A stretch of 64,000 nucleotides of DNA from a virus (lineage: Duplodnaviria; Heunggongvirae; Uroviricota; Caudoviricetes). Every line of letters starts with the position of its first letter. The stretch's first letter is position 1. The notes below the pieces were generated by a model, which had not been told where the DNA came from, did no database searches, and worked only from the letters and a program-made list of their open reading frames with translations. This document shows, piece by piece, positions 11,201-64,000 of the stretch. Location: IMG/VR virus record IMGVR_UViG_2718218136_000001; one strand, 5' to 3'. A program made the position numbers and the translations under genes.

Positions 11201-11384
11201 CCAGCATCGCCGACTGAGATTTTACGGATATAAATTCATAGCCCTGATTTCGCAGGTCCTGAATCAGTTCACGTTCCAGGTCCGATTCGCTCTGGTAGCT
11301 GTCGCCTGTTGGCTCAGCTTTGATGTACTTATCAAGAACGATAAAGTTATTGGATTCAGCAATGGTGTGTGTCTGATGAGTCAT
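8268..11384 (-). CDS. hsdR: Type I restriction enzyme R subunit (type IC, EcoR124-like)
   Basis: 1038 aa; Walker A TGSGKT, DECH box (FDECHRSQ); own promoter region 11385-11505. Confidence 0.9.
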
Positions 11385-11505
11385 AGCGCATCCTTTGTGC
11401 CGTCTGGCAAGGGCCGGAAGGGGGGTAATGGTGACTTCCGGCGCGTAAAAAATAGTCTATATACTGACCGGGTGTTAAGGTGGTCCGATCGGTAGCAATG
11501 ATCAA

Positions 11506-12737
<1,232 letters not shown>

Positions 12738-12741
<4 letters not shown>

Positions 12742-14300
12742 TTTTGCACCTCGCAGCCTTCAATTTCAGCCACAATCGCATCAATATCTTTACGCAACTG
12801 GTCGATTTTGCTGACCGTGGTTTTCAGCTCAGCATTCAGCTCAGCAATATCGATAATTTCGCGGTTATCTTTCGCTTCCACATAGCTGCTCACCGACAGG
12901 TTATAGTCATTAGCAACAACGGTCTCAAACGCGACAGATTTCGCCAGATGAGCAACATCTTCCTTGCTGGCAAATACCTGCATAATCTGTTCGATATGGG
13001 TATCGGTCAGGATATTGTTGTTAGTCTCTTTTTTGAACAGTTCGCTGGCGTCAATAAACTGAACGTTGGTATCCGTTTTATGTTTGGACAGAACCAGAAT
13101 GTTTACTGCAATGGTGGTGCCAAAGAACAGGTTCGGTGCCAGTGAAATTACGGTTTCGACATAGTTATTGTCAATCAGATACTGACGGATTTTCTGCTCC
13201 GCGCCGCCACGGTAAAAAATACCCGGGAAGCAAACAATCGCAGCACGACCTTTGGCAGAAAGATAGTTCAGCGCATGTAGTACAAAGGCGAAGTCAGCTT
13301 TTGATTTGGGGGCCAGAACGCCAGCCGGGGCAAAACGCTCATCGTTAATCAGTGTCGGGTCATCGCTGCCAATCCATTTCACCGAATACGGCGGGTTAGA
13401 AACGATGGCATCAAACGGTTTTTCATCTCTGAAGTGCGGCTCAGTCAGTGTATTACCCAGCCTGATATCAAACTTGTCGTAGTTGATGTTGTGCAAAAAC
13501 ATGTTCATACGCGCCAGATTATAGGTCGTATGGTTGATTTCCTGACCGAAAAAGCCTTCTTCGATGATATGGTTATCAAACTGCTTTTTAGCCTGCAACA
13601 ACAGTGAGCCGGAACCCGCTGCCGGGTCGTAGATTTTGTTAACGTTGGTCTGCCCGTGCATAGCCAGTTGTGCAATCAGCCTGGAGACGTGCTGCGGTGT
13701 AAAGAACTCACCGCCTGACTTACCAGCATTCGCCGCATAGTTAGAAATCAGGAACTCATAGGCATCGCCGAACAGGTCAATCTGATGTTCGTTAAAGTCG
13801 CCAAGCTTTAAGCCTTCAACCCCTTTCAGGACCGCAGCCAGGCGGGCATTTTTATCCTTAACGGTGTTACCCAGGCGGTTACTGGTGGTATCGAAATCAG
13901 CAAACAGACCTTTGATGTCTGCTTCTGAAGGATAACCGTAAGCAGAACTTTCGATAGCAACGAAGATGCTGTTTAAATCTGCATTCAGTCTGTCATTGGT
14001 ATTTGCTTTCGCCGCTACGTTGCAGAAAAGCTGACTGGGGTAGATGAAGTAGCCTTTAGTTTTGATGGCATCGTCTTTAATATCATCAGTAATTACGCTG
14101 TCATCCAGTTTCGCATAACAGATACTGTCATCACCGGCTTCAATATAGCTGGAAAAATTTTCGCTGATAAAACGGTAGAAAAGTGCGCCCAGAACGTATT
14201 GCTTAAAATCCCATCCATCGACCGAACCCCTGACATCGTTAGCAATTTGCCAGATTTGACGATGAAGCTCTGCACGTTGTTGAATACTTGTCATTTTCAT
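12738..14300 (-). CDS. hsdM: Type I R-M N6-adenine DNA methyltransferase subunit
   Basis: 520 aa; NPPY motif (VSNPPYS) and AdoMet-binding [10 protein letters not shown]. Confidence 0.9.
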
Positions 14301-19657: not shown

Positions 19658-19864
19658 TGTTTTTTGACTGCCGATGTTACATTGAACCTGACCTCTTGCG
19701 CCTTGAGGCATTTTCGGTTTATGCTTATCAGGCACCTCATTAAAACGGGTGCCGGGATTGAGACCCCGGATAATGTCAAAGGCGACACAGACGCCGAAAG
19801 CGTCTTTTTTTGTGTCATGCCATCGCACAGCCATACGTAGCGTTTAGCTCCGAAATCAATGGTA

Positions 19865-19955
19865 GTGCTGGCTGGGCTGCCGAAAGGCAGGCCGGTTCCC
19901 TTTGACGCCGGTAGTCTCAACCCAGTCAGTGCTACCGCCATTGAGATTGAGACCT
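19865..19955 (+). ncRNA. Candidate c4-like antisense RNA (immI repressor RNA)
   Basis: Hairpin gtctcaa...ttgagac (19914-19947) whose loop carries gctaccgc, complementary to gcggtagc at 19959-19966 just upstream of the icd RBS; direct repeat tagctcc at 19849 and 19963. Boundaries approximate. Confidence 0.35.
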
Positions 19956-20218: not shown

Positions 20219-21330
20219 GAACGTCATTAGTCACCCGTGAAGAAATGATTGAGGCAATTGAACAGCACACATCCTGTATCAGTACCAGGGATATACCGGG
20301 CGTTATTGCCAACTACTTCATGATCACCAAACAACTTTACCGGAGAAAGGACAAGAACGCTGTTCACCGCATTCTGTTGTCTGATATCCGCGAATACCTG
20401 CTCGAACAGGGGCATCTGAATTACGCAACCGTCGCAGCCGAAACACGCAAGGAGGCACACAGAATGAAAGCAACTAACGTTAAATCAGAAAAAACTCATG
20501 CACCTTCAGTTCAGGAATCGGAGCTGGTGGTTGTTCAGAATCAGTCTGATGAAATTCCCGTTCTGGAATGGCTGGGAGTGCGTGTAGTGACAACTAAGAT
20601 CCTTGCTAAGGGGTATGGGACAGATGCGGATAACATCAAGAAGAACTTTTCCCGTAATGCTGAACGTTTTTGTGAAGGCAAGCATTTCTATAAAGTTATT
20701 GGAGATGATTTGAACAATTTGCGGGTGACTTTAAGTAACTCACAAAATCCTATCTCTCCTAAAGCCCGCTCACTCATCCTCTGGACGGAACGCGGCGCAG
20801 CCCGCCACGCTAAAATGATCGAAACCGATCAGGCATGGGCATTCTTTGAAAAACTGGAAGACAGCTACTTCCGACAAAAAGAACAGCAACCGATCGCAAT
20901 CCCCCAGACGCTTCCAGAAGCTCTGCGCCTTGCTGCCGAACTGGCTGAACAAAAGCAACTTCTGGAACAGAAAGCCCATCAGCTAAATCAGCAGCTGGTG
21001 GCCGCAGCCCCCAAAGTCGATTTTGCCGACCGGGTATCAGTGGCTAAGGGGATCCTGATTGGGAATTTTGCAAAGGTCGTTGGACTTAAACAAAATGCGC
21101 TGTTTGCCTGGTTACGGGAGAACGGCATTCTGATAGCGTCCGGCGGCCGTAAAAATGTACCGTTCCAGCAGTACATAAACGCCGGATATTTCACAGTGAA
21201 AGAAGTGGTGCTGGATGATGAAGAGGGCTACCAGATACGGCTGACGCCCCAATTAACGGGGAAAGGCCAACAGTGGTTGACGCGTAAACTGCTCGATGCT
21301 GGCTTGTTAAAACCGGTGGCGGCTGAATAA
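20215..21330 (+). CDS. ant: Antirepressor Ant (N-terminal domain plus C-terminal antirepressor domain)
   Basis: 371 aa; C-terminal QQYINAGYFTVKEV...GKGQQWL block shared with the kilA-like gene and with the disrupted copy at 59179-60211. Confidence 0.7.
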   Translation: MRTSLVTREEMIEAIEQHTSCISTRDIPGVIANYFMITKQLYRRKDKNAVHRILLSDIREYLLEQGHLNYATVAAETRKEAHRMKATNVKSEKTHAPSVQESELVVVQNQSDEIPVLEWLGVRVVTTKILAKGYGTDADNIKKNFSRNAERFCEGKHFYKVIGDDLNNLRVTLSNSQNPISPKARSLILWTERGAARHAKMIETDQAWAFFEKLEDSYFRQKEQQPIAIPQTLPEALRLAAELAEQKQLLEQKAHQLNQQLVAAAPKVDFADRVSVAKGILIGNFAKVVGLKQNALFAWLRENGILIASGGRKNVPFQQYINAGYFTVKEVVLDDEEGYQIRLTPQLTGKGQQWLTRKLLDAGLLKPVAAE

Positions 21331-23367: not shown

Positions 23368-24399
23368 ATGTCCAATTTACTGACCGTACACCAAAATTTG
23401 CCTGCATTACCGGTCGATGCAACGAGTGATGATGTTCGCAAGAACCTGATGGACATGTTCAGGGATCGCCAGGCGTTTTCTGAGCATACATGGAAAATGC
23501 TTCTGTCCGTTTGCCGGTCGTGGGCGGCATGGTGCAAGTTGAATAACCGGAAGTGGTTTCCCGCAGAACCTGAAGATGTTCGCGATTATCTTCTATATCT
23601 TCAGGCGCGCGGTCTGGCAGTAAAAACTATCCAGCAACATTTGGGCCAGCTAAACATGCTTCATCGTCGGTCCGGGCTGCCACGACCAAGTGACAGCAAT
23701 GCTGTTTCACTGGTTATGCGGCGGATCCGAAAAGAAAACGTTGATGCCGGTGAACGTGCAAAACAGGCTCTAGCGTTCGAACGCACTGATTTCGACCAGG
23801 TTCGTTCACTCATGGAAAATAGCGATCGCTGCCAGGATATACGTAATCTGGCATTTCTGGGGATTGCTTATAACACCCTGTTACGTATAGCCGAAATTGC
23901 CAGGATCAGGGTTAAAGATATCTCACGTACTGACGGTGGGAGAATGTTAATCCATATTGGCAGAACGAAAACGCTGGTTAGCACCGCAGGTGTAGAGAAG
24001 GCACTTAGCCTGGGGGTAACTAAACTGGTCGAGCGATGGATTTCCGTCTCTGGTGTAGCTGATGATCCGAATAACTACCTGTTTTGCCGGGTCAGAAAAA
24101 ATGGTGTTGCCGCGCCATCTGCCACCAGCCAGCTATCAACTCGCGCCCTGGAAGGGATTTTTGAAGCAACTCATCGATTGATTTACGGCGCTAAGGATGA
24201 CTCTGGTCAGAGATACCTGGCCTGGTCTGGACACAGTGCCCGTGTCGGAGCCGCGCGAGATATGGCCCGCGCTGGAGTTTCAATACCGGAGATCATGCAA
24301 GCTGGTGGCTGGACCAATGTAAATATTGTCATGAACTATATCCGTAACCTGGATAGTGAAACAGGGGCAATGGTGCGCCTGCTGGAAGATGGCGATTAG
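23368..24399 (+). CDS. cre: Cre tyrosine recombinase
   Basis: 343 aa, MSNLLTVHQNLPALPVDATSD...; essentially the Cre sequence. Confidence 0.98.
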   Translation: MSNLLTVHQNLPALPVDATSDDVRKNLMDMFRDRQAFSEHTWKMLLSVCRSWAAWCKLNNRKWFPAEPEDVRDYLLYLQARGLAVKTIQQHLGQLNMLHRRSGLPRPSDSNAVSLVMRRIRKENVDAGERAKQALAFERTDFDQVRSLMENSDRCQDIRNLAFLGIAYNTLLRIAEIARIRVKDISRTDGGRMLIHIGRTKTLVSTAGVEKALSLGVTKLVERWISVSGVADDPNNYLFCRVRKNGVAAPSATSQLSTRALEGIFEATHRLIYGAKDDSGQRYLAWSGHSARVGAARDMARAGVSIPEIMQAGGWTNVNIVMNYIRNLDSETGAMVRLLEDGD

Positions 24400-24416
24400 C
24401 CATTAACGCTTAAATG

Positions 24417-42248: not shown

Positions 42249-42809
42249 ATGCTAATAGGCTATGTACGCGTATCAACAAATGAACAAAACACTGCTTTAC
42301 AACGAAACGCTCTTGAAAGCGCAGGATGTGAGCTAATTTTTGAGGACAAGGCGAGCGGCAAAAAGGCTGAGCGCCCTGGGTTAAAAAAGGTACTCCGTAT
42401 GCTTTCCAGAGGTGATACCCTGGTCGTATGGAAGTTAGATCGTCTTGGGCGCAGCATGCGTCACTTAGTTGTGCTGGTGGAAGAGCTGCGTGACAGAGGC
42501 ATTAACTTCCGGAGTCTCACTGACTCCATCGACACCAGTACACCAATGGGGCGCTTTTTCTTTCACGTAATGGGGGCGCTGGCAGAAATGGAACGTGAAC
42601 TTATTGTTGAACGTACACGCGCTGGACTTGATGCAGCTCGCGCAGAAGGTCGAATAGGTGGGCGTCGGCCTAAATACCAGAAAGAAACATGGCAGCAAAT
42701 GCGGCGATTGCTGGAGAAGGGCATCCCCCGTAAGCAGGTTGCAATCATCTATGATGTGGCTGTTTCCACTCTTTATAAGAAGTTTCCGGCGTCATCATTT
42801 CAATCCTAA
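42249..42809 (+). CDS. cin: Cin serine invertase
   Basis: 186 aa, MLIGYVRVSTNEQNTALQ...; resolvase catalytic Ser and C-terminal HTH; ends at cixL. Confidence 0.95.
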   Translation: MLIGYVRVSTNEQNTALQRNALESAGCELIFEDKASGKKAERPGLKKVLRMLSRGDTLVVWKLDRLGRSMRHLVVLVEELRDRGINFRSLTDSIDTSTPMGRFFFHVMGALAEMERELIVERTRAGLDAARAEGRIGGRRPKYQKETWQQMRRLLEKGIPRKQVAIIYDVAVSTLYKKFPASSFQS

Positions 42810-42826
42810 ACCTTGGTTTAAGAGAA
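42801..42826. other. cixL crossover site (caatcctaaacc-tt-ggtttaagagaa)
   Basis: 26-bp imperfect dyad at the outer edge of the left inverted repeat. Confidence 0.75.
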
Positions 42827-43409
42827 CTCGGTACCAGCGGTGAAAAGATCCCCCTGTTGAGCACGGCTAACACATGGAGTGCACGCCAGACTTTCAACGG
42901 CGGGATCACCGGGGCGCTGACAGGGAACGCCGATACCGCAACAAAATTGAAAACAGCCAGAAACATTAATGGCGTCAGGTTCGATGGTTCTGGTGACATT
43001 AATATCAATACTCTGGTATCGCGCGGTCGCGTAACGGCCCTGGAGGCGAATGCACAGGGAACATCCGGGATTCAGCTGTATGAGGCATACAACAATGGCT
43101 ACCCTTCCCCCTATGGCAATGTGCTTCACCTTAAAGGTGCCACCGCTGCTGGCGAAGGTGAGTTATTCATTGGCTGGAGTGGCACGAGCGGTACCCATGC
43201 GCCCGTACATATCCGTTCGCGGCGGGATACTGATTCTGCCAACTGGTCTGAATGGGCGCAGGTCTATACGTCAAAAGATTCAATTCCCGGCGTCAATGCC
43301 AAAGGGGATCAGGATACCTCTGGTAATGCGGCTACAGCGACCAAGTTGCAGACAGCATGTACTATCAACGGTGTCTCGTTTGATGGTTCTAAAAATATTG
43401 AGCTAACGG
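42811..43409. repeat. Left ~600-bp inverted repeat of the invertible C segment
   Basis: Reverse-complement identical to 46514-47111. Confidence 0.9.
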
Positions 43410-44371
43410 TTGAAAATTTAAATCTTGAGCGAACAGTAGAATTAGCCGCTGGGTCATTGCAGAAAAATCAGAACGGCGCGGATATTCCTGGAAAAGATAC
43501 CTTCACTAAAAATATTGGTGCATGTCGCGCTTTTCACAGTTCTATTAGTACAGGTGCAGGGAACTGGACAACGGCACAATTGATTGAATGGCTGGATTCT
43601 CAAGGGGCATTCAATCACCCATACTGGATGTGCAAATGTTCATGGTCGTACGGCAATAATAAAATTATAACCGATACTGGCTGTGGAACTATTCATCTTG
43701 CAGGTTGCGTTATTGAGGTTATGGGTAATAAAGGTGCCATGACCATACGCGTTACTACGCCGAGCACGTCCAGCGGTGGCGGAATCACTAACGCTCAATT
43801 CACTTATATTAATCATGGTGATGCTTACGCTCCTGGCTGGCGACGAGACTACAACACGAAAAACCAGCAGCCTGCATTTGCTTTAGGGCAAACAGGACGC
43901 AGGGTCGCAAATGATAAAGCTGTTGGCTGGAACTGGAATAGCGGCGTTTATGATGCAGATATCAGTGGCGCATCGACATTAATCCTCCACTTTAATATGA
44001 ATGCGGGGAGTTGCCCTGCTGTACAGTTCCGCGTGAATTACAGAAATGGCGGTATCTTTTATCGTTCAGCGCGTGATGGTTATGGCTTTGAAGCTAACTG
44101 GTCAGAGTTTTACACCACAACACGCAAACCCTCTGCGGGAGATGTTGGTGCATATACGCAGGCAGAATGTAACTCAAGGTTTATTACAGGTATTCGCCTT
44201 GGCGGTCTGTCATCTGTTCAGACATGGAATGGTCCTGGCTGGTCTGACAGGTCAGGTTATGTCGTTACTGGTTCAGTTAACGGAAACCGTGATGAATTAA
44301 TTGATACAACTCAGGCAAGGCCAATTCAGTATTGCATTAATGGGACGTGGTATAACGCGGGGAGTATTTAA
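42857..44371 (+). CDS. Alternative tail-fibre variable cassette Sv' (silent in this orientation)
   Basis: Promoterless; first ~185 aa identical to an internal part of S; distinct C-terminal domain. Confidence 0.8.
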   Translation: MSTANTWSARQTFNGGITGALTGNADTATKLKTARNINGVRFDGSGDININTLVSRGRVTALEANAQGTSGIQLYEAYNNGYPSPYGNVLHLKGATAAGEGELFIGWSGTSGTHAPVHIRSRRDTDSANWSEWAQVYTSKDSIPGVNAKGDQDTSGNAATATKLQTACTINGVSFDGSKNIELTVENLNLERTVELAAGSLQKNQNGADIPGKDTFTKNIGACRAFHSSISTGAGNWTTAQLIEWLDSQGAFNHPYWMCKCSWSYGNNKIITDTGCGTIHLAGCVIEVMGNKGAMTIRVTTPSTSSGGGITNAQFTYINHGDAYAPGWRRDYNTKNQQPAFALGQTGRRVANDKAVGWNWNSGVYDADISGASTLILHFNMNAGSCPAVQFRVNYRNGGIFYRSARDGYGFEANWSEFYTTTRKPSAGDVGAYTQAECNSRFITGIRLGGLSSVQTWNGPGWSDRSGYVVTGSVNGNRDELIDTTQARPIQYCINGTWYNAGSI

Positions 44372-44373
44372 TT

Positions 44374-44907
44374 ATGATGCACTTAAGAAATATTACAGCT
44401 GGCAACCCTAAAACAAAAGAGCAATACCAGCTAACGAAACAATTTAACATCAAATGGCTTTATACAGAGGATGGAAAAAACTGGTATGAGGAACAAAAGA
44501 ATTTCCAGTATGATACGTTGAAAATGGCCTATGACCACAACGGCGTTATTATTTGTATTGAAAAGGATGTTTCAGCAATTAATCCAGAAGGCGCAAGCGT
44601 CGTTGAATTACCTGATATTACAGCAAATCGCCGGGCTGATATTTCTGGTAAATGGATGTTCAAAGATGGCGTAGTGGTAAAGCGAACTTATACCGAGGAA
44701 GAGCAGAGGCAACAAGCGGAAAATGAAAAGCAAAGTCTGCTACAGCTCGTCAGGGATAAAACCCAGCTATGGGACTCACAGCTACGGCTGGGTATCATTT
44801 CCGCCGAGAATAAGCAGAAATTAACCGAGTGGATGCTCTTTGCGCAGAAAGTCGAATCCACAGACACCTCCAGCCTACCAGTAACATTTCCCGAACAACC
44901 TGAATGA
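44374..44907 (+). CDS. Alternative tail-fibre assembly chaperone U'
   Basis: 177 aa, N-terminus MMHL(R/K)NI(T/Q)AGN shared with U. Confidence 0.8.
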   Translation: MMHLRNITAGNPKTKEQYQLTKQFNIKWLYTEDGKNWYEEQKNFQYDTLKMAYDHNGVIICIEKDVSAINPEGASVVELPDITANRRADISGKWMFKDGVVVKRTYTEEEQRQQAENEKQSLLQLVRDKTQLWDSQLRLGIISAENKQKLTEWMLFAQKVESTDTSSLPVTFPEQPE

Positions 44908-44935
44908 GACAAGGCCCGATAGCGGGCCTTAATTT

Positions 44936-45463
44936 TTATTCAGGCTTTTGTGGCCATTCAGGATTTGCCGTATCCACACGGCTGACCAGAACACTGTAGC
45001 GTTCCCATGCTTCCAGTCGTGTGCGTTCCTCGTCTGTTGCCATATTCAGCCTGACAGCGCGTTCCAGCGGCTGGATGACTGATTCAGCTTCGGAAAGCAA
45101 TGCGGCCTTTTGTGATTCGGCTTGTTGTTGCTGTTCGTCTGCCGTATAAATCCGTTTAACTACAGCTCCATCCTTAAACATCCACTTTCCTGAATCATCA
45201 GCGCGGCGGTTGGCTGTTATGTCGGGAACCTCAACGACGCTAAAACCTTCAGGGTTAAGCGTGGAGGCATCTTTGGTGATGGCGACAATAATATTATTTT
45301 CATCGTAAACAATCTTTATGGTGTCTGGCTGAAAGTTTTTCACTTCCTCATACCAGTTTTTTTCGTCCTCAGAGTAAAGCCAGATGACTCCGTGCTTCTT
45401 TGTTAACTCATACTGCTCCAGTGTTTTAGCATTACCCGCTTGTATGTTCTTTAAGTGCATCAT
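44936..45463 (-). CDS. U: Tail-fibre assembly chaperone U (expressed orientation)
   Basis: 175 aa directly downstream of S. Confidence 0.8.
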
Positions 45464-45464
45464 A

Positions 45465-57828: not shown

Positions 57829-58350
57829 TTATTTCTTTTCTGGACAAGTAGCATTTGGCTGAATTCGAGTTTCATTATCTTTAGTTGAAATAAGCACAGC
57901 AAGCCCCGTTGTAAACTGGCATGCTTTACCAACTTGAGTTGAAGTGAACACCTTAGTTCCTTCTTTATAAGTCAGTGAAACACCTTCAACAATTGTTTTA
58001 TCACTAACCAAAGAACCAGCCGCTGCACCAAGAGCCGCACCACCAGTACCGCCAGCTACAGCACCCAGTGTCGATGTGCCTTTAACATTATAACCGGCAA
58101 CGCCCCCAGCAACAGCTCCCAGTACCGCACCAAATGTCTGTGCCGCTTCTTTATTAGCTTTATTATCAACTTTCACTTTAGCTGGAAGCACAGAGATAAT
58201 ATTGACTGTCTTTGTTTCCTGCTTCGAATTCAATTGAGCGGTATCATAAACATCGGCAGCATAATCAGCACCGCTAGATTGACACCCAGAAAGAAGAATT
58301 GCAGATACAACAAGAGCGCATAAAGTATACTTTTTAGACATAAGAATCAT
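57829..58350 (-). CDS. Glycine-zipper lipoprotein (lipobox LSGC)
   Basis: Signal peptide plus Cys; GAVAGGxxG glycine-zipper repeats. Confidence 0.55.
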   Translation of the reverse strand: MILMSKKYTLCALVVSAILLSGCQSSGADYAADVYDTAQLNSKQETKTVNIISVLPAKVKVDNKANKEAAQTFGAVLGAVAGGVAGYNVKGTSTLGAVAGGTGGAALGAAAGSLVSDKTIVEGVSLTYKEGTKVFTSTQVGKACQFTTGLAVLISTKDNETRIQPNATCPEKK

Positions 58351-58630
58351 CCCAGAAAAACAAAAACCGGCGAGAAGTTACCACGAGAACGGAAAGTAAA
58401 CAAGAATACTCCCATTGACTTATATCAAATAATCAACTTTTTATAAGCTATCCCTAACTTATTGTGTATAGCTGAAAAGTCAGAGATAAGTTCACCATCT
58501 GCATTATTTCTTAAGTTAATAGTTTATTGCTAACTTAATTTATGTATCGACTATTGATATCCATCTTAAAGTAACAATATCCCTCTGCATTATTTTCATC
58601 ACAAATAATACATCTATTGCACTACGCTCA

Positions 58631-58647
58631 CCTGCTCTAATAAATTT
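58631..58647 (+). promoter_or_regulatory. C1-operator-like site upstream of the second c4-icd-ant region
   Basis: cctgctctaataaattt. Confidence 0.5.
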
Positions 58648-58839
58648 GTATTTTTAAGTCGCGAATGCTATCTTTTCGCATCATATTGACCTTTTAATCG
58701 TTCAGGCTTATAGTTTCGCCGTCGTAGCAAATTCTGCGACCAGGTTTGACAGCCTGAATGATTGTGCGGACAACCGCAGATTTCCGATATTGCGGTATTT
58801 TGTGTCCGTTAAACCGCGTTACGCCCAAATTATGGTGGG

Positions 58840-58955
58840 GCGTGATGGGGAGGCTTCGGCCTGCTGGTTTCACAATCGCCAGTCTGTCAACCCTGTCACG
58901 TCCTGCCACCTGTTTGACAGCGGGTAGCAGGTTGTTAAACCTGATTGTGAGGCCG
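58840..58955 (+). ncRNA. Candidate second c4-like RNA region
   Basis: Hairpin tctgtcaa...ttgacag positionally analogous to the one at 19914-19947; boundaries approximate. Confidence 0.25.
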
Positions 58956-58960
58956 TAACT

Positions 58961-59182
58961 ATGGTTAATGCCAATCCTTGCGCACGCCCAGAATTCATCT
59001 GGCGTTTCTATTCCTGTAAAAAACACCACTATCACTTCGTTATCGCAGCAACTGAAGACGAAGCACGCTCTCAATTGCCTGATGGCCCCTGCATTTTTAC
59101 TGCCCGTTTTTCAACTAACTCGCGCAATTCACTTAGTTACTGGAGCCTCCCCTTCTCTGCCGACGTTCAGGGGGGTTTATGA
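58961..59182 (+). CDS. Icd-like protein, second copy
   Basis: 73 aa, about 70 percent identical to the 19997..20218 product. Confidence 0.55.
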   Translation: MVNANPCARPEFIWRFYSCKKHHYHFVIAATEDEARSQLPDGPCIFTARFSTNSRNSLSYWSLPFSADVQGGL

Positions 59183-60211
59183 AAACACCTCTCGTCACCC
59201 GTAATGAAATAGCCGAAGCGATCGCCCTGCATACTGCCTGTATGCCGACACGGGAGATCCCCGGCGCAATTGCTAACTATTTCATGATAACCAGACGTTT
59301 TTATACCCGAACAGATAAGGCTGTGATCAACAGGCTACTGATAGCCGAGATCAGGGATTATTTGATTGAACAAGGACGTCTACGTTACGCAACAGTGGCA
59401 GCAGAAATGAGAAAGGAGGCACATAGAATGACCGGTAATAATTTAAATGTTGAAAAACCAGCACCTGTTGCTTCAGCTACGCCAGCACCAGCCCTGAATG
59501 TCATCCCCAACACCGGAGACACAATCGACAGCCAAACATTGTTGAAGATGGTCAATGAGGCACGGAAATTATGTAGCGAAAAACCAGTTCGCAACAATGA
59601 TTTCATTGCCAGAGTTAAGGATGAGCTTGAAGGAGAAACCTACGAAATTTTCGTAGGTCAAAAAAACGGCGCAGTAATAGATATTATAACCATGACCTAC
59701 AAACAAGCCCTGCGAGTTGCCGCGCGCGAGTCAAAAGCGGTCCGCCGTTCGCTGATCGACAAACTGGAAGAATTGCAGCAGGCAAACTCCCCTACCCCAT
59801 CGATCCCCAAACATTACCAGAAGCTCTACGCCTGGCTGCCGAGTTGGCAGAACAGAAAATGCAGTTGGAACAACAGCTGGTGGCCGCAGCCCCTAAAGTC
59901 GATTTTGCCGACCGGGTATCAGCGGCTAATGGAATCCTGATCGGGGACTTGCAAAGGTCGTTGGACTTAAGCAAAACGCCCTTTTCTCATGGTTGCGCCA
60001 GAACGGCATTCTCATGGCTTTTGGTGCGCGCAAAAACGTACCGCGCCAGCAGTACATTAACGCCGGGTATTTCACGGTGAAAGAAGTGGTGCTGGATGAT
60101 GAAAATGGCTACCAGATACGGCTGACGCCCCAATTAACGGGTAAAGGCCAGCAGTGGTTAACTAGCAAGCTACTTGATGCTGGTTTGTTAAAACCAGTAG
60201 CAATAGGTTAA
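59179..60211 (+). pseudogene. Antirepressor ant, second copy, interrupted by two frameshifts (about 59800 and 59955)
   Basis: Homology to the intact Ant continues across three frames (ORFs 59179..59940, 59844..60080, 59993..60211). Confidence 0.6.
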
Positions 60212-60288
60212 CAAAAGAAAAAACCTGCCAGCTAACTGGCAGGTTTCTGAGCAGATCGACCAACCCGATCTGGATCGAGTTAGAAAAA

Positions 60289-60305
60289 TTTGCTCTAATA
60301 AATTT
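60289..60305 (+). promoter_or_regulatory. C1 operator, near-perfect consensus (tttgctctaataaattt), upstream of the kilA-like gene
   Basis: 16/17 match. Confidence 0.65.
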
Positions 60306-60373
60306 CGTTTCTAAGTGCAAAGAATCACCATTTCGAGCTGGTGATTGAAGGTTGATGCAAATTTGGAGAAAAA

Positions 60374-61172
60374 ATGCAACAAACATTCAATGCGGATATG
60401 AATATATCAAACCTTCATCAAAATGTCGATCCTTCAACCACCCTGCCTGTTATTTGTGGTGTTGAAATTACGACCGACCGCGCTGGCCGTTATAACCTTA
60501 ATGCTCTACACAGAGCGAGCGGACTCGGTGCCCATAAAGCGCCAGCTCAATGGCTAAGAACGCTGTCAGCCAAACAGCTCATCGAAGAGCTTGAAAAAGA
60601 AACTATGCAGAATTGCATAGTTTCGTTCGAAGGCCGTGGCGGCGGCACTTTTGCCCATGAATGCTCGCAGTGGAGTACGCTGGTTGGATTCTCCCGCGTT
60701 TCGGCTGAAGGTAAACCAGACATTTATCGACTATCGAGCTGGAAGATTACAACCTGCTATTCCGAAGAGCCTCCCAGAAGCTCTCCGTTTGGCTGCTGAC
60801 CTGGCAGAGCAAAAGCAACGGCTGGAGCAAAAAATGCTGATGGATGCACCTAAAGTCGAATTCGCCGAACGCGTTGCTACCGCCAGCGGGGTTCTAATCG
60901 GCAACTATGCCAAAGTGCTCGGCCTGGGCCAAAACTATCTCTTCACCTGGTTGCGTGATAACGGAATTCTGATCGCAACCGGTGAACGCAGAAACGTCCC
61001 CAAACAAGAATACATATCCCGTGGGTATTTCACCCTTAAAGAAACCGTGATCGATACAAGCAATGGAAGCAGGATTTCTTTCACGACTCGTATAACCGGC
61101 AAAGGTCAGCAGTGGCTGATGAAGCGATTGCTTGATGCTGGTGTGCTGGTACCTGTCGCGGCAACGCGCTAA
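60374..61172 (+). pseudogene. KilA-N domain antirepressor-like gene split by a frameshift near 60660
   Basis: N-terminal KilA-N/Bro-N-like ORF 60374..60799 and C-terminal ORF 60636..61172 carrying the shared Ant C-terminal domain; combined length about 266 codons. Confidence 0.55.
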
Positions 61173-61201
61173 CAGACGTAGTAAGAACCACCAGCATTGT
61201 A

Positions 61202-61636
61202 ATGCTGGCTAAAGTCACTTTCCTGAGCTGTATAACGATGAGCGATTTTACTTTTTCTGGCTATGAATTGGCCTGCTTTGTAACACACTCCGGTCTATCC
61301 CGTAGCGCCGGGCATATCCTGTCGCAATGTGCAAATCTCGCGGCAACAACCAGTGAATACTTCATTCACAAGCCTCACCGCCTGATCGCGGCAGAAACTG
61401 GTTATAGCCAATCAACCGTCGTTCGTGCATTCCGTGAAGCTGTAAACAAAGGAATTCTGTCTGTAGAGATTGTTATCGGCGATCACCGTGAACGTCGCGC
61501 TAACCTGTACCGGTTTACACCATCCTTTTTGGCCTTCGCACAACAAGCCAAAAATGCGCTGATTGAAAGCAAATTAAAGATCTCTTCAGCGGCAACCAAG
61601 GTTAAGCTGTTCTCGCTAAGACATTGGCTTATTTAA
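61202..61636 (+). CDS. HTH-containing protein at the repL position (possible short or truncated RepL-like lytic replication initiator)
   Basis: 144 aa; winged-helix-like AETGYSQSTVVRAFREAVNKGIL; synteny after kilA. Confidence 0.3.
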   Translation: MLAKVTFLSCITMSDFTFSGYELACFVTHSGLSRSAGHILSQCANLAATTSEYFIHKPHRLIAAETGYSQSTVVRAFREAVNKGILSVEIVIGDHRERRANLYRFTPSFLAFAQQAKNALIESKLKISSAATKVKLFSLRHWLI

Positions 61637-62040
61637 TTTTTATCCACACCCCCATGTCAAAATGATACCCCCTCCCCCTGTCAGGATGACGTGGCAATAA
61701 AGAATAAGAAGTCACAAGTTAAAAAACAAAAAGATCAGTTTCCGGCGGTGCCGGAACGACCAGACTCAAAAAATGACTTCATGGATCGCTGAGGCAAAAG
61801 CAAAGGCTGACAATCTGCGGTTATCCAAAAAACGCGCTCAAAAACATGAGTTCAAGCAGAAAGTAGAGGCGGCAGCGCGGAAATATGCTTACCTGAAGGA
61901 CAAGGCGTCTCCTGATATTGCGGGATATCAAACTTCGATAATCTGCCGCATTGCATGACGGTAAACGAAGCTCTTAATGCGGTTTAGCCAAAAAAAGATA
62001 ACGAACAATGGGGTATACCGGCAGATTCAGAGGGTGATAG

Positions 62041-62057
62041 ATTGCTCTAATCTGGAG
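62041..62057 (+). promoter_or_regulatory. C1-operator-like site (attgctctaatctggag)
   Basis: 11/17 with a perfect left half. Confidence 0.35.
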
Positions 62058-62500
62058 TCACTGGCGTTTTCAGTTTGAGTCGGAGATGCAATTGATTTTT
62101 TACAGTTAGCGATCGCTTTGCAGGATATGTTTGTATTGGCTTCTGTGTATACATGATAGCCGAAAAATGCTTGTCGATATCGACCGCAAAGAACAAGCAG
62201 GAGATTCTAGTATGGATTTTCTTTGGCGCGGTCTGGCCATTAGGATCATGTTTGCTGCAACATTTCTTCTGATGTGGATATTCACCCTTCCAGGTGATTC
62301 TATAGAAAAAAAGCCAGACATTGATACAATCGTTGCGGTGCTTGAGGCTATCTGCTTCAGGCATTACCCGAAAAGCAGATAGAAGAAGCCCCAGTAACAT
62401 TACGCGTCCTGCAAGACGCTTAACATTAATCTGAGCATATCTATGCTTAGCATACGTAGATTAGCCTCTTACCGACCAAAAGGTCAAGGAGAAGCAGGCT

Positions 62501-62646
62501 ATGAAGCAGCAAAAAGCGATGTAATCGCTCTGATCGTCATCTGTTTAACCGTCATTGTGACGGCACTGGTAACGAGAAAGACCTCTGCGAGTACGAATCC
62601 GAACGGCCAACGGAGTCACTGTCTTCACAGCCTACCGAATCTGAAA
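62501..62646 (+). pseudogene. Degenerate hok/gef-family membrane toxin gene (at least three frameshifts)
   Basis: MKQQKAM (frame 2), VIALIVICLTVIVTALVTRK (frame 1), DLCE (frame 0) and VRIRTANGVTVFTAY (frame 2) together resemble HokC/Gef MKQHKAMIVALIVICITAVVAALVTRKDLCEVHIRTGQTEVAVFTAYESE. Confidence 0.5.
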
Positions 62647-63906
62647 GTAAGAACCTGCGGGAGAGATCCCTGCACTCTTCGTGTGTCAGGTATCTCAATG
62701 CACCCTTTCCTCTCCAAATAAAAAAGCTCCCGAAGGAGCTTTAAAATACAAGGGATGACTCTTAAGCCCACTCATCCAGTTGTAGACGATACGAAGTGAC
62801 GGGCGCACAGCGGCAGTCACATCTTCGTACTAAAGTCGATTGCATCACTGTAGATTTTGCAGTCCAACATTTCAATTTGTAGCAGCTTTTGTCACAGCGT
62901 TACCCGGAAGATTTGATTCAGGGTCGCAGCCATCGTGATATCAACATAGTCCTTCGCCGCAATGCGATCTTAATGAACTGAAGAATATCGCCTTCGATAG
63001 TCTCCACCACTGGACCTGGATTTCCCCAGAGTTTCGAATTGGACCGTGCTGGTTGAACTTCACACCATTCGGACCATAGTCCTCCACATCCTCGCGGTCA
63101 TTCAGGAATTTGCGACGTGCGAACCAGTACGCTGATATCTTCATGCTGCAAAAGTGAGCTGGAATTCAGAAGATACCAGTCGTTCGCCTTTGGCCGCGTT
63201 GCAGTATAGCGGCCTTAATAAATTTACGGTTTCCTTAGTGTTATTGTCCCCATATAAAATCTTTTACTGAACGCCCGACATATCGGAGCTGTTATATCGA
63301 AGAACCGGTCAACTGGAGTTGCGGTGTTTTCAGGAAATGCCCATTGGTCCCTGGCGCATCGAGATCGAAACTTATGTCTGGATAGCGACATCAATGATGT
63401 TGATCCGCGACCAATGTTTAGCGTCACACGCTCCGGGATTCGACCACCAATACTGGCATCTTTAAGTTCCGGGCTAATCATCGCTGACAATGCGGCGATA
63501 GCTCCTGAAACCTCCGTGAATGGTCAAACAAAGCGATGAAAGTTACTGGCAGCGTGAAAGTCGGCGGTGTTCCCCCCTCCCAAACCATTAAGCTGTTCAA
63601 CGGGCCACCGACGTTGTTTCAGTACCAACCTGCGCAAAACCACTGAAAGCACCAGCAACAGACCCCATGGACATACCGGTAAACGGCGCTTCCCAATTCT
63701 GGGCCATGTTCATTGCTGCCCCCTGGCTGATATCCGGTAACCTGGTACTGAGAGTTCGTTAAAGTAACTTTCAGAAATGGCGATACACCGTCAGCCTGGC
63801 TGTAAACCCCATAAGGAATAGGTGCCATTCAAGTTAAAGGCCGGAGTTCTCCGGCCTCCTCCTTTAGCCAAGGCGCTTACGGCGCAGTTTCATTGACTTT
63901 TTGCGG

Positions 63907-64000
63907 AATGTAAATATTGTCATGAACTATATCCGTAACCTGGATAGTGAAACAGGGGCAATGGTGCGCCTGCTGGAAGATGGCGATTAGCCATTAACGC
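63907..64000 (+). repeat. Duplicate of the cre 3' end and downstream flank (identical to 24316-24409), cut by the window edge
   Basis: 94 bp identical, including the codons for NVNIVMNYIRNLDSETGAMVRLLEDGD-stop. Confidence 0.85.

Follow-up and report, generated by a model that had tools for sequence, protein, structure and literature searches.

Two single-base deletions split a P1-type kilA gene within a deletion-rich patch of a phage-plasmid sequence

The DNA analyzed here is a stretch of 64,000 nucleotides (hereafter, the window) from a P1-like (Punavirus) phage-plasmid, in which positions 60374-61172 are kilA. In this copy, the two domains expected of the KilA protein are found in two overlapping open reading frames (ORFs). 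This raises the question of whether the gene has really been inactivated, whether its parts are joined by programmed frameshifting or form a natural two-gene arrangement, or whether the split is an error of the sequence. The preliminary description of this locus, made from the window alone, had proposed that the kil function is inactivated, if the split is real, or that its expression requires programmed frameshifting.

The kilA locus and its lesions

The kilA gene of the window (60374-61172, plus strand) aligns with P1 kilA (NC_005856 49896-50696) and with the intact 801-nt kilA genes of plasmids. It is 799 nt long, compared with 801 nt in all relatives, and is spread over three frames by two 1-nt deletions. 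The gene order icd-ant-kilA-repL is the same as that in P1 and in plasmid annotations; in the P1 reference NC_005856, ant1/ant2 are followed by the promoter PkilA (P53) with the C1 operator OrepL (Op53), then by kilA, and then by repL with oriL. At the position equivalent to that of the P1 promoter (49792-49820), the window has PkilA/P53 on the plus strand (60271-60299), with TGGATC as the -35 sequence (60271-60276) and TCTAAT as the -10 sequence (60294-60299). The 17-bp C1 operator Op53/OrepL, TTTGCTCTAATAAATTT, is located at 60289-60305 (plus strand) and is identical to the P1 operator annotated at 49810-49826; the C1 operator that had been noticed upstream of the gene is thus Op53 itself. 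The lytic replicon operon kilA-repL, which C1 represses, starts with kilA. The P1 lytic replicon consists of kilA and repL, is transcribed from P53, and is controlled by C1 through Op53 (PMC9948254). Expression of KilA is lethal to E. coli, and kilA is dispensable for lytic replication, for which repL is essential (PMC9948254).

The assignment of the locus to kilA, with a KilA-N domain in the frame of 60374 followed by an Ant-type domain in the frame of 60636, was confirmed by Pfam (PF04383 and PF03374). ORF1 (60374-60799, plus strand, 141 aa) encodes KilA residues 1-96 followed by an out-of-frame tail (CSQWSTLVGF...). Its KilA-N match (PF04383, E 3.5e-10, 40.1 bits) lies at residues 27-96 and covers only profile positions 5-79 of 107. 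ORF2 (60636-61172, plus strand, 178 aa) begins with about 18 codons of out-of-frame sequence, corresponds from about 60691 to KilA residues 107-266, and contains the end of KilA-N together with ANT/KilAC (PF03374, E 1.2e-32). The two ORFs overlap by 164 nt, close to the 160 nt or so estimated previously. As written, the 266 codons of kilA do not form one continuous ORF; we attribute the split to a sequence error and thus retain the assignment to kilA.

When kilA was aligned with its counterparts in P1, two further phages, and three plasmids, two single-base deletions were seen, both on the plus strand. The first reduces the TT of all relatives to a single T at 60662 (GAATTGC to GAATGC), and the second reduces their TTT to TT at 60689-60690 (GGATTTCT to GGATTCT). 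Three-frame translation showed that the segment between them (60663-60688, plus strand) contains the nine true KilA codons LLAVEYAGW in the third frame. Consequently, the reading of KilA starts in the frame of 60374 (residues 1-96), passes through the third frame (LLAVEYAGW), and continues in the frame of 60636 (from about residue 107). The preliminary description had placed one lesion near 60660; there is a break at this place, but the lesions are two. It had also recognized a conserved motif, W-L-x-SPxF-x-L-K-V, in the second frame. The SPAFRLKV part is truly conserved, but the W-L-x start is a wrong-frame coincidence, because LLAVEYAGW between the lesions lies in the third frame and the true sequence is GWISPAFRLKV. 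The lesions are at about residues 97-106, inside the KilA-N domain. Since the restored KilA-N match spans residues 27-123, the break is within a domain and not at a domain boundary.

When the two T's are restored, the gene encodes a 266-aa KilA that is identical at 266 of 266 positions to WP_001187871.1, and the restored gene has seven nucleotide differences from CP010146, all of them synonymous. The KilA-N score increases from 40 to 75.4 bits, now over profile positions 5-106, and ANT/KilAC (PF03374) is detected with E 2e-32. Gap filling thus gives a common RefSeq protein with synonymous differences only, which speaks against the inactivation of kil proposed earlier.

Signals for recoding were looked for at the lesions. 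Direct reading of the codons GAA TGC TCG CAG TGG AGT ACG CTG GTT GGA TTC revealed no slippery heptamer, in-frame stop, rare codon, or upstream stimulator of the Shine-Dalgarno type. In the ORF1 frame of 60636-60799, visual inspection likewise found neither an X XXY YYZ heptamer nor a prfB-like CUU UGA motif at the lesions. Neither of the possible ORF2 starts (GTG at 60636 and ATG at 60657) is preceded by a plausible ribosome-binding site or Shine-Dalgarno sequence.

We compared the locus with its relatives using two queries. The 1.1-kb query around kilA matched P1, P7, and 20 other phage records with 97.7-98.8% identity, and more than 500 P1-like plasmids and complete E. coli genome records with up to 99.5% identity; in every relative inspected, kilA is intact and 801 nt long. 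The second query, of 131 nt, spanned both lesions and matched 512 complete-genome E. coli records and 509 plasmid records. Its best match was 131/133 (98.5%), that is, identical except for the two missing T's. No record among these 512 E. coli and 509 plasmid records reached 99% identity, and therefore neither deletion is present in any otherwise matching record. With the two queries together, no homolog with the same kilA split was found among phages, plasmids, and complete E. coli genomes. The annotation 'KilAC domain-containing protein (x2)' was considered as a possible split kilA and was rejected; it represents ant plus kilA. Homologs with a natural two-gene arrangement and the same overlap, which had been named as the observation that would overturn the idea of a frameshifted gene, were looked for and not found among about 510 relatives. 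The arrangement is therefore not natural, and a sequence artefact is favoured over real inactivation.

Deletions around kilA and the join at 63906/63907

In its kilA part, the window is most closely related to E. coli D5 plasmid A (CP010146), with 99.9% identity over 56800-59200. Compared with CP010146, the stretch 58592-63733 has 68 deletion events and one insertion, whereas the 5,026 bp upstream of it have no indels (binomial p ~1e-20). The number of deletions per 500 bp is 0-2 over 58.0-61.5 kb and then 8, 13, 18, 19, and 3 up to 64 kb; at the peak of 18-19 per 500 bp (62.5-63.5 kb), there is about one deletion per 27-28 bp. Comparison with two other plasmids was concordant: 60-62 kb has 13 deletions, and in 62001-63906, there are 57 deletions and seven substitutions compared with CP067401, one of the two. 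Homopolymer runs of at least two bases contain 76% of the deletions, compared with 48% expected (chi-square p 3e-5), and three quarters of the deletions fall in runs of only 1-3 bases. The deleted bases are strand-asymmetric, with 27 G and 13 C. For kilA, the local density (seven deletions in 3 kb) predicts 1.9 hits per 800-bp gene, and two were observed. Both kilA lesions are private among about 510 relatives and are two of the 68 deletions of this 5.1-kb patch, an observation that speaks against both loss of the kil function and programmed frameshifting.

All seven genes that follow icd within the stretch are broken, and all seven gap-filled proteins have 98-100% amino-acid identity to those of relatives, with no internal stops. 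In the ant1/ant2 homolog ant (59179-60211, plus strand), two 1-nt deletions were found, one reducing C5 to C4 near 59804-59808 and the other reducing TTT to TT near 59948-59950; the gap-filled protein matches at 343 of 345 positions. The gene repL (61202-62037, plus strand), which encodes the lytic replication initiator and contains oriL, has about 10 deletions, and its gap-filled protein matches at 277 of 282 positions. Four more broken genes are located at 62086-63713: a 246-nt hypothetical gene (six deletions), hokD (seven), a bplB-like gene (15), and a pmgG-like gene (13). The longest ORF remaining in 62086-63713 is at most 92 aa, and there is no ORF longer than 144 aa in 61.6-64 kb, whereas ORFs of 2255, 1140, 1038, and 1030 aa are intact elsewhere in the window. 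The sok antitoxin RNA at 62336-62506, next to the hokD ORF with its seven deletions, is still recognized by Rfam (81 bits) despite its location in the error-dense stretch. A uniformly noisy nanopore assembly was considered as a source of the deletions and rejected: in 1-58000, the bins have about 0-1 indels outside divergent segments, and ORFs of up to 2255 aa are intact.

Downstream of the stretch, at 63906/63907, the pmgG/gene-21 region changes abruptly into the 3' end of cre (its last ~80 nt). Over its final 94 nt (63907-64000), the window is 100% identical to its own positions 24316-24409. No microhomology was found at the 63906/63907 join. About 23 kb of expected P1 backbone is skipped there, including genes 22/23, parAB, repA, the dnaB-like helicase gene (ban), tRNA genes, and the Dam methyltransferase gene (dmt). 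This join may have arisen by chimeric assembly or mark the end of a contig; alternatively, the rearrangement is real. Wrapping of a small circular sequence by the window was tried as the source of the duplicated 63907-64000 and rejected; only the last 94 nt are repeated. No deletions occur in the ~170 nt that immediately precede the join or in the 94 nt that follow it, and thus the patch does not simply become worse toward the end of the contig.

Several other features of the window were noted in passing. An intact type I restriction-modification system (8268-14300, minus strand) encodes HsdR (1038 aa), HsdS (411 aa), and HsdM (520 aa), and the segment is absent from the two reference plasmids compared. 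Its position presumably corresponds to the locus where P1 has the type III res/mod genes. hsdS contains an internal direct repeat of 490 bp (11630-12118 and 12238-12727, 99.6% identical). At 42249-47120, the window has the C segment of P1-like phages, an invertible tail-fibre segment; it includes a Cin-type serine invertase (42249-42809, with Resolvase and HTH_7 domains), beside which there are 623-bp inverted repeats (42803-43425 and 47120-46498, 99.2% identical). Besides the canonical c4 (58828-58913, with its a1b1 target at 58708-58760), the window has another C4 antisense RNA (75 bits) in a second immI-like module near c1 (19732-19942 and 20989-21314); this module also contains an isrK-like RNA and a segment similar to ant, with 86% identity to 59871-60195.

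Sequence error or real loss

The deletions are private to the window, clustered, and biased, and all of the affected genes are restored by gap filling. We conclude that the kilA split is very probably a sequencing or assembly artefact of an ordinary P1-type kilA, and we infer a technical cause. The two kilA deletions would then be part of a local cluster of consensus errors of the deletion type (58592-63733). Patches of this kind are typical of regions where a long-read or hybrid assembly is poorly covered or unpolished, and the one here adjoins what appears to be a chimeric join or contig end at 63906/63907. The real molecule most likely has an intact 801-nt kilA ORF for a 266-aa protein with the KilA-N and KilAC domains. 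What would be expected of an artefact was observed: the differences are private, they are of one indel type (68 deletions and one insertion) and prefer homopolymers, the patch is bounded, seven of seven genes are hit regardless of function, and conservation returns once the indels are removed. Furthermore, the essential repL and the hok toxin gene have more deletions than kilA, and therefore non-selective noise fits better than targeted inactivation.

An alternative explanation is that kilA, ant, repL, hok, and their neighbours have really been lost by frameshifts, possibly in the course of a domestication of the prophage-plasmid that destroyed its toxic and lytic functions. Since lytic replication does not require kilA and expression of the gene kills E. 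coli (PMC9948254), real loss-of-function alleles of this gene are plausible in principle. The affected block is also functionally coherent (antirepressor, kil, lytic replicon, and hok), and the join at 63906/63907 could be a true rearrangement that removed ~23 kb of backbone. However, natural decay would not give a ratio of 68 deletions to one insertion, or of 57 deletions to seven substitutions in 1.9 kb; in bacterial pseudogenes, substitutions outnumber indels by about 10-20 to 1. Nor is there any sign of relaxed selection in the gap-filled genes, because their proteins are 98-100% identical to those of relatives and kilA has seven synonymous and no non-synonymous differences. Moreover, none of the about 510 relatives shares a deletion with the window, runs of only 1-3 bases hold three quarters of the deletions, and all of them lie within 5 kb, the neighbouring 5 kb being free of deletions. 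We thus regard real loss as unlikely. Even if the kilA deletions were real, all they would show is that a P1 gene that is dispensable and toxic to the host has been lost, a finding of minor interest.

A more far-reaching version of real loss is that all 68 deletions were produced by a deletion-only process that wiped out the block of antirepressor, kil, lytic replicon, and hok beside a recombination join. This would be a previously undescribed route to the domestication of prophage-plasmids, and we consider it very unlikely.

Even less probable, in our opinion, is that some local, deletion-biased biological process acted on the 5-kb segment, for example error-prone repair synthesis or replication slippage linked to the join. 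The deletion density does peak within ~1 kb of 63906/63907 and declines with distance, as such a process might produce. However, we know of no precedent for this density, that is, of no process in which a single base is deleted about once per 27-28 bp while substitutions and insertions are nearly absent. The excess of G over C and the enrichment in homopolymers match read-level error profiles, and the last 170 nt beside the join are deletion-free.

Finally, a programmed +1 frameshift or two -1 shifts joining ORF1 and ORF2, or a natural arrangement with separate KilA-N and KilAC genes, is suggested by the 164-nt overlap of two ORFs that each have a recognizable domain, but the chance of either is practically nil: the homolog comparison effectively refutes them (about 510 of about 510 homologs have one uninterrupted ORF with the two extra T's), the break is inside KilA-N and not between the domains, the native protein requires two separate shifts 27 nt apart, and six neighbouring genes are broken likewise.

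Thus, in all likelihood, the split kilA of the window is not a real biological feature but a sequence artefact. The practical value of this result is in quality control: 58.6-64.0 kb (the last ~5.4 kb) is unreliable for gene calls, pseudogene counts, and the discovery of frameshifts. The split ant, the truncated repL, the broken hok/sok, and the odd ORFs of this region would have the same trivial cause.

Comparison with P1 KilA and with residual errors of long-read assemblies

The gene underlying the split is already known; it is P1 kilA, specifically the gene for WP_001187871.1. P1 KilA (KILA_BPP1, YP_006517.1) is encoded at the same position (ant1/2, P53/Op53, kilA, repL), behind an identical operator, and has the same order of Pfam domains, KilA-N and then ANT/KilAC; the nucleotide identity over 1.1 kb is 97.7%. 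The alignment with P1 KilA, which had been recommended as a check, located the two 1-nt deletions and showed that the gap-filled protein of the window differs at two of 266 residues. Unlike P1 kilA, the window copy is without two T's (60662 and 60689-60690) and runs through three frames, and no other record does so. From KilA WP_001187871.1 of P1-like IncY plasmids (E. coli D5 plasmid A, NZ_CP010146, and the 2013C-4081 plasmid, NZ_CP027575), the window differs only in the two 1-nt deletions.

The second comparison is with the residual indels of long-read and hybrid assemblies, which occur in patches of low coverage or without polishing, at contig ends, and at chimeric joins. The patch around kilA resembles them in that nearly all of the indels are deletions, in the enrichment of the deletions in homopolymers, and in the strand-asymmetric bias of the deleted bases. 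It also resembles them in its form, a sharply bounded patch in otherwise clean sequence with an abrupt join to a duplicated segment, and in its effect on the genes, which are frameshifted as written and perfectly conserved after gap filling.
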